DNA from: a virus
Taxonomy: Duplodnaviria; Heunggongvirae; Uroviricota; Caudoviricetes
DNA length: 21,887 bases
Virus record (IMG/VR): IMGVR_UViG_2534681878_000037
Direction: 5' to 3' (one strand)
Made by a program: the position numbers. Below, piece by piece: positions 12,001-18,000 of this stretch (positions are counted from its first letter, which is position 1; every line of letters starts with the position of its first letter).

Positions 12001-15000
12001 GCGAAGCCACGTGTCTCTGTCATGAGTAAACTTGCGTTGGCTCTTGGAGTATCAGCTTCATATCTAGAATATGGTGTTGGAGATAGAGAGGAATGTAAGG
12101 AAATGGCAAGCATCCCCAATCCAACAAAGCCCGATGTATACAGGATAGAAGTTTTGGATCTTAGCGTTAGCGCAGGACCTGGGACCTATATGCTTTCAGA
12201 CTATGTTGATGTGCTCTACGCCATTGAGTTCACAACTGAACATGCCCGTTCTCTTTTCGGAAACCGTTCTCAGAATGATATAAAAGTTATGACGGTAAAT
12301 GGAGATAGTATGTCCCCAACTCTTGTTTCCGGGGATCGATTGTTTGTCGACATTTCCGTTCGCCACTTCCAGACTGATGGAGTTTACTCTTTCGTTTACG
12401 GTAAGACTTTCCATGTTAAACGTCTACAAATGCAAGGCAACAAACTAGCTGTTCTTTCGGATAACCCCGCCTATGAGAAATGGTACATTGATGAGAAGTC
12501 GCAAGATCAGCTTTATGTTATGGGTAAGGCACTGATTCATGAGTCGATTAAATATAATCGACTTTAATTAGGCATCTAGCAATCGTTAAAGCAAACGAGC
12601 ACAGATGATAAAAGATAAGGATAGAAAATCTTTATACAAATTTTATTTGGCACATTGGTCCATAAAAATGGATTAACACTGAGCTGTTACCCTAAGTAAG
12701 AAAAGATAAAGACCATATGTTATCTTTGGGTGCGTTACTAACACAAAAAAAACCAAAATAAAACATAAATAATAGACAATTCTATACAACAGGATACGAT
12801 AATGATTAATGAACGTACTGAAGCGACAGATGGGGTAGCAGATATGATTTCCACCAATACAAAATATTTAGTATGGAACAACAAAGGTGGTGTAGGAAAA
12901 ACTTTTCTTACATATAATCTTGCCGTTGAGTTTGCTATATCTCATCCGGATCAAGATGTTGTGGTTATTGACTCATGCCCTCAATCAAACGTTTCAGAAA
13001 TTATTCTTGGTGGCAATGGTACCGGGGAAGAAAATCTAAATAAATTGCGAGACAGAAATGTTACAATCGCAGGTTATATCAAGGAGCGTTTTAGCAAATC
13101 TCCTTTGTCTCGTTTAGGAAATGAATCTTCTTACTTTGTACGAGCCCATGATGTTAATGCAAAAATGCCAGAGAACTTATATATTCTTCCTGGTGATGTC
13201 GATCTTGATATCTGTTCACGCTTAATATCTCACATTGGCTCATCCCCAGTAAAAGAAGCATGGAAGAAAAGCCGATCTTTGCTGGTAGATCTAATAGCAT
13301 CTTTTGAAGCCGATAAAAACATTTCTGACAGAGCAAAAACATTTTTTATTGATTGTAATCCAAGTTTTGCCAGCTACACAGAATTGGGAGTAGTCGCGGC
13401 AAATAGAATAATTATCCCTTGCACTGCCGATGCTGCATCAATTCGCGGAATAAAAAACCTTGTTAAACTTATTTATGGAGTGTCTATTGACAAGTCAGAA
13501 CAAGATGAAATGTTCTTAGATTTCAACAAAGAAGCAAAGCAAAACCTTATCGAACTACCTGAACTACACCTTTTCGTACAAAACCGCTCAAGAACTAATG
13601 AAAGTGATGCAGCAAAAGCATTCAAATCACATGCAGAAGAGATCAAAAGAATCACGGATGACCTGTTAAATACACATCCTCATCTGTTCACAAATGTGGC
13701 TACTGAACCGCCCCGGAAATCCTGGAGACTAAACTCCCTGAGAAAGAGGTAAACAGGATGACTAAAAATACTCGTTTTTCCCCCGAAGTCCGTCAGCGGG
13801 CGATTCGTATGGTTCTGGAAAGTCAGGATGAATATGACTCACAGTGGGCGGCAATTTGTTCCATTGCCCCAAAGATTGGCTGTACGCCGGAGACTCTGCG
13901 TGTCTGGGTTCGCCAGCATGAGCGGGATACCGGGGGCGGTGATGGTGGGCTCACCAGCGCTGAACGTCAGCGTCTGAAAGAGCTGGAACGTGAAAATCGT
14001 GAACTGCGCCGCAGTAACGATATCCTTCGCCAGGCTTCCGCTTATTTTGCGAAGGCGGAGTTCGACCGCCTCTGGAAAAAATGATGCCACTGCTGGATAA
14101 GCTGCGTGAGCAGTACGGGGTCGGACCGGTATGCAGCGAACTGCATATTGCCCCGTCAACGTATTACCATTGTCAGCAACAGCGACATCATCCGGATAAA
14201 CGCAGTGCCCGTGCGCAGCACGACGACTGGCTGAAGAGAGAGATACAGCGCGTATACGATGAAAATCATCAGGTGTACGGTGTGCGTAAAGTCTGGCGTC
14301 AGTTGTTACGGGAAGGAATCAGGGTGGCCAGATGTACAGTGGCACGTCTCATGGCGGTTATGGGACTTGCCGGTGTTCTCCGGGGTAAAAAGGTCCGTAC
14401 GACCATCAGCCGGAAAGCCGTTGCCGCAGGCGACCGCGTAAACCGTCAGTTCGTGGCAGAACGACCTGACCAGCTGTGGGTGGCTGATTTTACTTACGTC
14501 AGCACATGGCAGGGCTTCGTCTATGTGGCGTTTATCATTGATGTGTTTGCCGGATACATCGTGGGGTGGCGGGTCTCATCGTCTATGGAAACGACATTCG
14601 TGCTGGATGCGCTGGAGCAGGCGTTGTGGGCCCGTCGTCCGTCTGGCACCATCCATCACAGCGATAAAGGCTCTCAGTATGTGTCACTGGCCTATACGGA
14701 GCGACTAAAAGAAGCCGGATTACTGGCATCAACAGGGAGTACAGGCGACTCGTATGACAACGCGATGGCTGAGAGCATCAATGGTCTTTACAAAGCGGAG
14801 GTAATACACCGTAAGAGCTGGAAAAACCGTGCAGAAGTGGAACTGGCCACACTAACGTGGGTGGACTGGTATAACAATCGACGATTGCTGGGAAGGCTGG
14901 GCCATACTCCTCCGGCAGAAGCAGAAAAAGCTTATTATGCTTCCATCGGAAACGATGATCTGGCAGCCTGAGTTCACAGATAAAACACTCTCCAGGAAAC

Positions 15001-18000
15001 CCGGGGCGGTTCACTACTTTCGAGAGAGTTCAAAATGTCAAAGATGGTAATACTCTTGCAGCAATAATAAACCATGAGGGATGCCCTTTAAGTAGGCTGC
15101 AGCATAAGAGTTACACTATCTATGGTATGGCGACCCAAGCTAATAGAGCACAAATTGAAGCACTAGAATCTGATGTTTCAACAGTAGTCAAGTGTCTGTA
15201 ATACAATAACCATGATTTAGAACGAACATAATTCTCGCCCGACCAACCGGTCGGGTTTTATACTCGTAGCCTGCTTAATAACACTGTTCCTGACCCGTTG
15301 TATCCATAGTTCCCACTATTTTCCCCCAAATTATTACTATCTAATTAACCTAATAATTAAACCAAAACAAAAGACACTCGATATTTTCTATACGTAACTA
15401 CGCCACATCACCCCATCTGTGAAAAACCTTTTAATTCATAACGTTATATAGAAAACTAAAAATTAAATACACACTTCTACTTTTTGTTGTTGATTTTTGC
15501 TACTTTTAGTAGCATCATTATCTGAACAAACAACAGACTGTTGTTAACGAAAGGTTGGTTGTAACACGGCGTATGGCACATGCGTCGTTAGCGGTCTGGG
15601 GACGTTAAAGGGGACAATCCACTCCTTGCTCGGGCAAACAAACCAGGTAGCCGGAATGTGCAAGTCAATGAGGATGCTGATAAGACGCCTAACCAGCGTG
15701 GCGATTCGGTTTGACGCCTGGGAAGAGACCAGGACGCAACGATGAGAGCATTGACGAGCAAGGCATAAGTGCTGGTTCAATTCCAGACAGTCCCATTCAG
15801 ATGGGAGGGTTGGGCAGGGAAAAGGTCCGTTCGATTCGGACACCGGCAATGCTATCAGCGTTGTGGTGAATGCGCAGGCTGATGCGCGAAAGACATTGCA
15901 GCTATTGCGGAAAAGAGCTGTTCGGCGGGGCAATCAAACGCCCGTGAGAGTCTGAAATAACCGCAAGCCGGAGATCAGCACCGGTCACCACAACAGCCAC
16001 TGCTTTGGCAGTACCAGTTTGTACACTTGCTTCCGGCTGGTACCGCTCTTTTTACAAAACAGAGAAGAGCATCACCGGACGACGGGCTCATAACCCAATC
16101 CATCCGGGCGGCTGCCACCGCAGGTGTTCTTCTCTGTTTTGTGGAGAAACCAACCGACCTTGCAGGGTCGATATGATGAGGAGCAACAAAATGGCTAGCG
16201 AACGCAGTACTGATGTGCAGGCATTTATCGGGGAGCTGGACGGCGGCGTATTTGAAACAAAAATCGGCGCAGTTCTCAGTGAAGTCGCTTCCGGTGTGAT
16301 GAACACGAAAACCAAAGGTAAGGTCTCGCTCAACCTGGAAATCGAACCGTTTGATGAGAACCGTGTGAAAATCAAACACAAACTCTCATATGTTCGCCCG
16401 ACTAACCGCGGGAAAATTTCCGAAGAAGACACCACCGAAACACCGATGTATGTCAATCGCGGTGGTCGCCTGACTATTCTGCAGGAAGACCAGGGACAAT
16501 TACTGACTCTTGCCGGTGAACCTGACGGAAAACTACGCGCAGCAGGTCATTAATATCGTTCTTAATTAACTGATTATTTATCTCATCACTGAATATCTTT
16601 ATATAGTGAGGACTTATTATGTCTCAGAACTTAGACGCAACCGCAATTAATCAAATCCATGCCCTTATTTCTGCTCAGGGTGTTAATGAAATTATCAGTA
16701 AGATTGGTGCCGATGCTGTGGCATTGCCTGAGAATTTCCGCATTCATGATCTGGAAAAATTTAATTTAAATCGCTTCCGTTTCCGTGGTGCGCTTTCCAC
16801 TGCCAGCATCGATGACTTTACCCGTTATTCTAAAGATCTTGCAGATGAAGGCACCCGCTGCTTTATCGATGCCGATAATATGCGTGCCGTCAGTGTGCTT
16901 AACCTGGGTACTATTGATGAACCAGGTCACGCAGATAACACCGCCACTCTCAAACTAAAAAAGACAGCACCGTTTTCTGCTCTGTTGTCTGTTAATGGCG
17001 AGCGTAACTCCCAGAAGTCACTGGCAGAATGGATTGAAGACTGGGCCGACTACCTTGTGGGCTTTGATGCTAATGGTGACGCCATTCAGGCAACAAAAGC
17101 GGCTGCGGCTGTCCGTAAAATCACGATTGAAGCAAACCAGACCGCTGATTTTGAAGATAATGACTTCAGCGGCAAACGCTCCCTGATGGAGTCTGTCGAA
17201 GCGAAGACCAAAGACATTATGCCTGTGGCATTTGAATTTAAATGCGTTCCGTTTGAAGGTCTGAAAGAACGTCCGTTTAAATTACGCCTCAGCATTATCA
17301 CTGGCGATCGTCCTGTACTGGTTCTGCGCATTATTCAGCTGGAAGCGGTGCAGGAAGATATGGCTAACGAATTTCGTGATCTGCTTGTTGAGAAATTCAA
17401 AGACAGCAAAGTAGAAACCTTTATTGGTACTTTCACCGCCTGATTTCATTACTGCAAATGCCCCTGCGGGGGCATTTATGGAAACGTAATTAACTCAATA
17501 ATCACCGGATGGTGATGGCTTCCTTTTACCCAAACTCAGCGCGGTGCAGCGCATATGCGTGGAGAACAAAATGTCATTTATTAAAACTTTTTCCGGGAAG
17601 CATTTTTATTATGACAAGATAAATAAAGACGACATCGTGATTAACGATATCGCGGTTTCCCTTTCAAATATCTGCCGCTTTGCCGGTCATCTTTCTCACT
17701 TCTACAGTGTCGCCCAACATGCGGTGCTTTGCAGCCAGCTGGTGCCGCAGGAATTTGCTTTTGAAGCGTTAATGCATGATGCAACAGAAGCGTATTGCCA
17801 GGATATTCCCGCTCCACTGAAACGCCTTCTTCCTGACTATAAACGGATGGAAGAAAAAATAGACGCCGTAATCCGTGAGAAATACGGGTTACCCCCGGTT
17901 ATGAGCACGCCTGTGAAATATGCCGATCTCATCATGCTGGCAACCGAACGCCGCGATCTCGGGCTTGATGATGGCTCTTTCTGGCCAGTACTGGAAGGTA

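Follow-up and report, generated by a model that had tools for sequence, protein, structure and literature searches.

An insertion-split ParA-like ATPase gene in the immunity region of a Stx1-type prophage: an Escherichia coli orthologue of the Salmonella anti-phage gene gipd474

Introduction

The stretch of DNA considered here, IMG/VR virus record IMGVR_UViG_2534681878_000037 (21,887 nucleotides, Caudoviricetes), comes from a Stx1-type prophage, and the whole of it is referred to below as the window. Directly downstream of its CI-type repressor gene lies a gene for a ParA-like ATPase that has been split by an insertion sequence (IS). This gene is the Escherichia coli orthologue of gipd474, a single-gene anti-phage defence of Salmonella prophages, and it is carried as AT-rich cargo in a lambdoid immunity region. 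An earlier reading of the window from the sequence alone (the original prediction) had singled out the same gene as a candidate for exclusion or defence.

The interrupted gene

The gene and the element inside it comprise the following features, in which positions are those of the window and ORF stands for open reading frame.

12802-13703, plus strand: 5' part of the ParA-like gene, codons 1-300 plus 2 nt, with Walker A (K28-T34), motif 2 (D57-x-C59-P-Q-x-N63), Walker B (D184) and N261-x-S-R264
12802-13752, plus strand: truncated ORF as it stands, ATG at 12802 and AGGA at 12791-12794, 316 amino acids (300 native and 16 IS-encoded residues), then stop
13700-13703, no strand: left target-site duplication CTAC, 4 bp, direct repeat flanking the IS
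13704-15013, plus strand: IS3-family element of the IS629/IS1203 type, 1,310 bp, splitting the gene after codon 300
13704-13728 and 14989-15013: terminal inverted repeats of the IS, 25 nt, which begin TGAACCGCCCCGG
13758-14084, plus strand: IS orfA, 108 amino acids, IS3-type ORF overlapping orfB
14081-14971, plus strand: IS orfB, 296 amino acids, IS3-type ORF overlapping orfA
14039-14155: ALIL frameshift pseudoknot within the IS, Rfam match of 121 bits
15014-15017, no strand: right target-site duplication CTAC, 4 bp, direct repeat flanking the IS
15018-15201, plus strand: 3' part of the ParA-like gene, from the last nucleotide of codon 301 to the stop, encoding VKDGNTLAAIINHEGxPLS ... YxIYG ... 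TQAN

By BLAST, the element matches sequences annotated as 'IS3-like element IS1203 family transposase'. When 12802-13703 is spliced to 15018-15201, the result is an uninterrupted ORF of 1,086 nt, or 361 amino acids, and once the IS and 4 bp are excised the DNA is 100% identical to intact E. coli genes that encode WP_000606712.1, 'ParA family protein'. The 361-residue ParA/MinD ATPase reconstructed in the original prediction was therefore correct to the residue. One of the intact matches lies in the Stx1a prophage at mlrA/yehV of E. coli O157 strain FDAARGOS_293, and the exact protein WP_000606712.1 is recorded on at least 1,000 contigs. Among 5,426 complete E. coli genomes, 71 carry the gene, uninterrupted and at least 99.6% identical in all 71, and the IS junction is absent from every one of the 5,426 genomes searched; the disruption is therefore private to the source of the window, and recent. 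The segment lost to the IS consists of the last 60 residues, including the invariant K309, D310, N312, T313, G322, Y333 and Y336. With these conserved residues cut off, the copy in the window is very probably a dead allele that has lost its function.

The window also contains a stx1B-like ORF (3742-4011) and a stx1A-like ORF (4021-4977), both on the minus strand. Near them are Rfam matches to two small RNAs, AgvB (3389-3448, plus strand) and STnc100 (3450-3663, minus strand).

The immunity region and its cargo

The surroundings of the gene were resolved into the features given here, OR and OL being the right and left operators of lambdoid phages.

11493-11756, minus strand: Cro-like gene, divergent from the repressor
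11787-11826, no strand: OR-like operators between cro and cI, comprising the exact 17-bp palindrome TGCTACTTAAAATAGCA (11787-11803) and, 23 bp on, a degenerate copy (11810-11826)
11806-12567, plus strand: CI-type repressor, TTG at 11806 (the RefSeq start is the ATG at 11863), Peptidase_S24 2.3e-16 and HTH_3 1.9e-5
12568-12801, plus strand: AT-rich leader, 234 nt, 30% G+C, AGGA ribosome-binding site at 12791-12794
15237-15260, plus strand: intrinsic-terminator-like hairpin with an 8-bp stem, 6 G-C pairs and a T run, 36 nt past the stop codon of the gene
15475-15514, no strand: OL-like operators, comprising the exact palindrome TGCTACTTTTAGTAGCA (15498-15514) and, 23 bp upstream, a degenerate copy
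12570-16005, no strand: variable cargo segment of the immunity region

As had been proposed, the gene stands directly downstream of, and co-oriented with, the repressor, an ORF with helix-turn-helix (HTH) and S24 domains at 11806-12567, and no terminator was predicted between the two genes. A YmfL/CII-like gene also lies on the Cro side, divergent from the repressor. The 17-bp palindrome TGCTACTT-N4-TAGCA occurs with zero mismatches at only two places in the whole 21.9-kb window, 11787-11803 and 15498-15514, on either side of the repressor and the ParA-like gene.

Comparison with two sister prophages (L097 and L098) delimits the cargo. Their homology with the window breaks off just past the cI stop codon (12569) and is regained from about 16006, upstream of yfdP, the sole homology inside this segment being a 75-nt island (15447-15521) around the OL palindrome that is kept in prophages with different cargo. 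L097 carries in the same cI-to-OL slot a different ParA-like gene (WP_000167381.1), only 23% identical to the one described here and intact in 109 E. coli genomes. In L098 (E. coli OkiPb01715, 5784-7230) the same flanks enclose two or three small hypothetical ORFs instead (115, 126 and 91 amino acids), which gave zero Pfam matches. Because L098 holds these small ORFs between the same flanks, the cI-to-OL segment is a cargo hotspot.

The order of OR, cI, cargo, terminator and OL is the arrangement of lambda cI-rexAB, in which the place between cI and the terminator and OL is used for rexAB. The base composition of the segment sets it apart, with a G+C content of 30% in the leader, 37.7% in the gene and 34% downstream, against 48.6% for the window. 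Since an AT-rich segment has been replaced between identical flanks, the original description of the gene as a moron in a rex-like slot is directly supported.

Between the OL-like operators and yfdP (16191-16553), the interval 15540-16190 (about 0.65 kb, about 54% G+C) has zero RefSeq-annotated genes and holds doubtful ORFs only, at 15544-15933 (minus strand) and 15711-15869 (plus strand). In the lambdoid layout, an N-like antiterminator or a nut site is expected at this place.

Relation to GiPD474

Bosma, Noireaux and Bowden described GiPD474 (STM474_RS13505) as a prophage defence protein of Gifsy-1 and Gifsy-3 in Salmonella Typhimurium (Appl Environ Microbiol, November 2025; PMC12724215). 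In S. Typhimurium 4/74, the Gifsy-1 immunity region holds gipd474 as a single gene of 1,086 bp, with GGVGKT at residues 29-34 of its product. Its deletion allows phage Felix O1 (FO1) to plate again, and when supplied alone on a low-copy plasmid it brings the efficiency of plating down by about 5 logs for FO1, Alf5 and T4, whether the host is Salmonella LT2 or E. coli K-12; it is without effect on T7, SP6, LPST153, Jbel, VpaE1 and S16. The block was not explained by an O-antigen barrier, and transcription of gipd474 exceeded 500 transcripts per million in exponential-phase lysogens. Homologues, taken at 70% or more in both identity and coverage, adjoin CII/Cro/repressor modules across Enterobacteriaceae, and their Clade I includes E. 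coli and Salmonella (PMC12724215).

The protein reconstructed from the window and Salmonella GiPD474 are identical at 335 of 360 positions (93%), both are 361 amino acids long, and both fall in the same 90% cluster. The identity of GiPD474 was checked through the knock-out primers of that paper, whose homology arms encode DNGRVEATDRPTE and ALESDVSTVVKC; these are the two ends of the Salmonella proteins in this cluster. The two proteins share GGVGKT at 29-34, and the two genes share a location in the immunity region beside CII, Cro and repressor genes. They differ in that the copy in the window is split by the IS, so that its last 60 residues are not contiguous with the rest and the ORF is not intact, and in that its carrier is a Stx1-type E. 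coli prophage, not a Gifsy prophage. The supposition that the gene serves in defence is thus borne out by an orthologue that blocks phages as a single gene, whereas the remark that no single-gene ParA-like defence had been described is overtaken by the publication of November 2025 (PMC12724215). The gene is accordingly not new.

A search of the literature on ParA-like anti-phage defence returned nothing on the GiPD474 family beyond that paper; a Klebsiella tropism preprint treats ParA only as a lysogeny marker, and a paper on metagenomic selection had zero ParA/MinD matches. What is added here to PMC12724215 is the replacement of an aspartate by a cysteine in motif 2, the pan-prokaryotic spread of the family, its linkage to repressors in distant phages and P1-like plasmids, and the second ParA-like family in the same slot.

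Protein family, motifs and fold

In profile searches the reconstructed protein matched the Pfam families AAA_31 (3e-16) and CbiA (1.5e-8), and PHROG 164, 'ParA-like partition protein' (2e-46). Among the NCBIfam models, ParA_partition scored 48.9 bits against a cut-off of 180, and all others (sub-threshold ParA, MinD and ArsA) were far below their cut-offs. The sole match in PADLOC-DB v2 (2023), a library that the description of the family postdates, was at chance level (Drt5, E 0.007).

The deviant Walker A motif is KGGVGKT at residues 28-34, with K28 as the signature lysine, and K28-G-G-V-G-K33-T34 is invariant in 77 homologues. Walker B, FFIDCNPS at 181-188 (D184), aligns with IIIDCPPS of Soj and ParA. 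Motif 2 reads D57-x-C59-P-Q-x-N63 and departs from the canonical D-x-D-P-Q-x-N, its second aspartate being replaced by cysteine. Of the motifs named in the original prediction, the deviant Walker A and Walker B are therefore present as described, and the A' motif is not canonical. In full, the conserved motifs along the protein are W-N-N-K28-G-G-V-G-K33-T, D57-x-C59-P-Q-x-N63-x-S-E, L-G-G-N-G, D184-C-N-P-S, P-C-T-A-D-A-A-S-x-R-G, N261-x-S-R264, K309-D-G-N-T-L-A-x-I-x-N-H-x-G and Y333-x-I-Y336-G. The C-terminal KDGNT...YxIYG stretch is the most conserved motif of the family.

An AlphaFold model was built from the alignment of the 77 homologues, the first sequence of which was a 93%-identical homologue and not the reconstructed E. 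coli protein. Its mean predicted local distance difference test score (pLDDT) is 88.6 and its predicted template modelling score (pTM) 0.89. ParA, McdA, ParA2 and delta are the closest structural relatives predicted, and 244 of the 255 residues of the ParA structure 8ray are matched in the model. Because the match takes in nearly all of 8ray, the ParA fold extends over the whole protein, and the C-terminal extension of roughly 100 residues that had been proposed is not borne out as an appended domain: in the model, the roughly 100 extra residues are a disordered, variable N-terminal tail together with insertions into the fold and additions to it. It is only in sequence that the last 140 or so residues are family-specific, since the profile-profile alignment (hhalign) with Bacillus subtilis Soj covers residues 19-222 only; in the Soj sequence used, the positions of R189, D40 and K16 are consistent. 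In a MAFFT alignment with Soj, the placing of the C-terminal third was unreliable. The C-terminus is acidic (…EALESDVSTVVKCL), and helix 344-360 is modelled as long and packed. Longer relatives show only AAA_31 and CbiA, with no fused domains. Profile searches and structure prediction, which had been put forward as checks, therefore place the protein in the ParA family and on the ParA fold.

A cysteine in place of the catalytic aspartate

In alignments with hidden Markov models, C59 falls on the residue that was changed to alanine in solved structures so as to trap dimers with ATP bound, as in Soj D44A of Thermus thermophilus (TtSoj; 2bek, 'VDLAPQGN'), ParA D60A of Myxococcus xanthus (MxParA; 8ray, 'VDMAPQGN') and Soj of Helicobacter pylori (HpSoj; 8jmj, 'IDFAPQAN'). 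In M. xanthus ParA, motif 2 consists of D58, D60 and N64, and D60 is the catalytic aspartate that coordinates the attacking water; the D60A variant has zero ATPase activity and forms very stable dimers (PMC12462528). The GiPD474 family retains the equivalents of D58, Q62 and N64, and carries cysteine at the equivalent of D60. This cysteine is invariant in the 77 aligned family members and is also found in the protein of Pseudomonas phage phi297, in a separate alignment of 22 sequences. In a wider sample of 104 representatives of 50%-identity clusters with the N-terminus retained, the position is cysteine in 84, aspartate in 9 and serine in 4.

The replacement suggests slow intrinsic hydrolysis and a long-lived ATP dimer, which, if so, would explain how a ParA-type protein could act without an activator of the ParB type. 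The change from aspartate to cysteine is a hallmark of the family that had so far gone unremarked.

Distribution and genomic neighbourhood

The GiPD474 family is pan-prokaryotic, archaea included, a breadth that does not appear in PMC12724215. It has 418 matches among the species representatives of GTDB, including metagenome-assembled genomes of Methanoperedenaceae and Hodarchaeota, and comprises 122 clusters at E <= 1e-30 in a 50%-identity library.

The linkage to phage repressors reaches well beyond enteric bacteria. The gene directly follows cI, in the same orientation, in Klebsiella phage ST11-VIM1phi8.2 at 83.5% identity and in Pseudomonas phage phi297 (gp27) at 38%. In IMG/VR, 117 viral contigs matched, 80 were kept and 77 gave usable loci. 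One of the two nearest upstream genes was a co-oriented S24/HTH repressor for 37 of the 39 close homologues, and for 15 of the 35 homologues below 40% identity. Homologues below 60% identity are present on 152 plasmids; those listed are full-length matches at 35% identity on plasmids of about 75-128 kb typed as non-mobilizable. On the IncY (P1-type) plasmid examined, the homologue directly follows Icd, antirepressor (KilAC) and HTH genes, in an immI-like region with no adjacent ParB. On this plasmid, NZ_CP057246.1 of E. fergusonii (L179, 6001-7056), to which about 150 plasmids are similar, it is the full-length member WP_000220354.1, at 35% identity.

For the homologues in genomes, ORFs were called around 85 loci in species-representative genomes and clustered all against all. 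Recurrent neighbours were IS1595 and IS1 transposases, S24/HTH repressors, ATPases of the ATP-binding cassette type, DUF6471 and, in a few alphaproteobacteria, a 143-residue ORF. No conserved partner gene emerged from the 85 genome loci and the 77 viral loci, and ParBc was not among the Pfam families matched by two or more of 147 flanking proteins. Lone copies stand amid housekeeping genes in Aggregatibacter and Alysiella, and other contexts include a Campylobacter integrative element, an Acinetobacter prophage adjoining HicAB and the interior of an Azospirillum type I restriction-modification (R-M)/Mrr island. The immediate neighbours gave a modest defence-island signal, with a few R-M methylases, NsnA, PD-T4-2_A, AAA_21 and HEPN.

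A module found in alphaproteobacteria (Azospirillum L008, 6593-9477, and L026, 4585-7517) consists of an IS1595 transposase, DUF6471 (76 amino acids), the ParA-like gene and the 143-residue ORF, which is encoded on the other strand; in A. thiophilum the module is embedded in a type I R-M locus adjoining Mrr and an integrase. The recurrence of the IS1595 module suggests IS-mediated spread into defence islands.

In the window, no ParB partner, no min genes near the gene and no tandem or centromere-like repeats were found, apart from a weak A-rich 11-mer present three times in the leader. The neighbourhood survey, proposed beforehand as a check on the defence reading, thus showed repressor linkage and not the pairing with ParB/parS that would speak against it.

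Proposed mechanism and alternative explanations

The best overall explanation, to which a probability of roughly 0.7 is attached, is that the gene is a gipd474 orthologue, a single-gene anti-phage defence expressed in the lysogen, and that the copy in the window is most probably dead. The mechanism is put forward more tentatively, as a possibility well short of an even chance: a ParA-type dimer that is slow to hydrolyse ATP would sit on DNA and block DNA transactions of the phage. The complete ParA/Soj-type fold and the deviant Walker A motif would allow an ATP-sandwich dimer, which is suggested by the presence of the signature lysine, and C59 in the position of the catalytic aspartate may render such dimers long-lived with no need for a ParB-like activator. 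The dimer would probably be bound to DNA or the nucleoid, as proposed from the DNA binding of the closest structural relatives (ParA, McdA, ParA2 and delta), and the invariant R264 in N-x-S-R-T-N resembles the DNA-binding arginine of Soj ('DAR189TN') and might play its part. After adsorption, the dimer would interfere with DNA transactions of particular myophages (T4, Felix O1 and Alf5), the family-specific C-terminal surface giving phage specificity. Expression would most likely come in the lysogen by read-through from the cI promoter, given that no terminator is predicted between the genes and that the Salmonella gene is highly transcribed in lysogens.

Several points weigh against this account. 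For every family member, the binding of ATP and DNA, dimerisation and slow hydrolysis are predicted properties, and the loss of function of the truncated allele is likewise a prediction. The cysteine could still permit hydrolysis or serve elsewhere, for example in redox sensing. The equation of R264 with Soj R189 is one of motif resemblance and predicted secondary structure only, the profile alignment ending at 222. Closely related phages differ in their response (Alf5 against VpaE1; T4 against S16 and Jbel), which fits a specific trigger or target better than a generic coating of DNA, and the protection described in PMC12724215 may be either direct or by abortive infection.

This differing sensitivity of close phages points to a specific phage determinant and makes an abortive-infection switch the main rival, possible but on balance unlikely. 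The dimer would be harmless until a phage protein binds its C-terminal surface and would then become toxic, for example by compacting or blocking the host nucleoid or the machinery of replication, so that the infected cell would die or stall ahead of any phage progeny. Such dependence on a trigger typically shows itself in different sensitivities of close phages, and the best-conserved motif of the family falls in the C-terminal region, the part by which ParA/MinD proteins contact their partners. The slot downstream of the repressor is, moreover, common to rexAB, and BstA is a prophage abortive-infection gene likewise placed downstream of a repressor. Against a switch of this kind, there is no effector domain and no fused domain in longer relatives, and no toxin-like partner gene was found at the loci surveyed.

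Superinfection exclusion at the envelope is very unlikely. Here the protein would be MinD-like or associated with envelope machinery and would block genome entry or alter a receptor or uptake component. Expression in the lysogen from an immunity region, where exclusion genes occur, agrees with this, and a block of DNA entry would fit the results of PMC12724215, which show only that the O-antigen barrier is not the explanation. The acidic C-terminus and the packed helix of the model are, however, unlike the basic amphipathic membrane-targeting helix of MinD, and protection is seen in E. coli as well as in Salmonella, against phages whose receptors differ.

Lower still stands a regulator of lysogeny, a highly improbable reading by which a Soj-like ATPase modulates replication initiation or prophage induction and phage resistance is a by-product. 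The tight linkage to cI in enteric, Pseudomonas and P1-like elements speaks for it, and some ParA proteins are regulatory, such as Soj, which acts on DnaA or Spo0A. Yet the gene protects from a plasmid in the prophage-free LT2 and K-12, and it is not confined to prophages, being present also within an R-M island, in modules linked to IS1595 and alone on chromosomes. Nor is it needed for the lysogeny switch, because sister prophages have unrelated cargo at this place.

A partition or maintenance ATPase, that is, a degenerate ParA aiding the inheritance of an excised or plasmid-like prophage, is favoured by the PHROG and NCBI names ('ParA-like partition protein'), by the homologues on P1-like phage-plasmids and by the phi297 gene, once tied to unstable lysogeny and guessed to have a plasmid-maintenance role (Krylov et al., 2012; PMC3564109), but it is essentially ruled out, being close to refuted: neither the window nor about 160 related loci show a ParB, adaptor, centromere repeat or recurrent partner, the prophages are integrated elements with integrase genes, the IncY copy lies in immI with no ParB beside it, the ParA_partition score is far below its cut-off, lone chromosomal copies stand amid housekeeping genes, and the cloned gene alone blocks phages (PMC12724215). 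The original view that the locus is not a partition cassette is upheld.

The DNA-bound dimer proposed for GiPD474 can also be set in a wider frame. Orphan ParA-fold ATPases might form a broad, pan-prokaryotic class of one-protein immune factors whose mechanism would be new to defence: a ParA naturally impaired in hydrolysis by the aspartate-to-cysteine change would form persistent ATP dimers on DNA, or capture a phage component there, and halt phage DNA replication or packaging. This generalisation is speculative and more doubtful than the mechanism proposed for GiPD474 itself; it is compatible with the 418 species representatives, the Pseudomonas phages and the P1-like plasmids, and with the 23%-identical family in the same slot.

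Significance

An inference made from sequence only, namely a rex slot, AT-rich cargo and a ParA without ParB, is matched by an independent experiment of 2025. Some Stx1-type prophages carry an anti-T4/Felix O1 gene, and the strain from which the window derives has lost it to an IS629-type insertion, which could affect susceptibility to therapeutic or biocontrol myophages. The cysteine in place of the catalytic aspartate, the wide distribution of the family and the second ParA-like family in the slot provide handles on mechanism. Once its working is established, a phage defence that relies on the fold of a positioning ATPase and has no effector domain would represent a new mechanism.

Comparison with known systems

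With type Ib ParA/Soj proteins of chromosomal and plasmid ParABS systems (8ray, 2bek), the family of the window gene shares the deviant Walker A motif with its signature lysine, the aspartate, glutamine and asparagine of motif 2, and Walker B. It differs in having no ParB or parS, in the cysteine that replaces the catalytic aspartate, in about 100 extra residues (an N-terminal tail and insertions) and in the last 140 or so residues, which cannot be aligned by sequence; and it is mobile cargo, not a partition locus. McdA (6noo), which positions carboxysomes, needs the adaptor McdB and a cargo and lacks the signature lysine, whereas the family described here has the lysine and no adaptor gene. 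MinD belongs to the same superfamily and has the KGGVGKT Walker A motif, but the family of the window gene is without the amphipathic membrane-targeting helix, MinC or MinE.

Lambda RexAB and Gifsy remAIN resemble the present system in their position, a co-oriented slot downstream of cI and before the terminator and OL, in their expression by the lysogen and in their protection against unrelated phages. RexAB is a two-protein membrane-depolarising system and remAIN comprises three genes, and neither has kinship of sequence or fold with the one soluble ATPase encoded here. Within the ParA/MinD superfamily of SIMIBI-class ATPases, the protein has the deviant Walker A motif, the fold and Walker B, and lacks a canonical motif 2. 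This departure in motif 2 is specific to the family, and the fold together with the other motifs still places the protein in the ParA/MinD superfamily.

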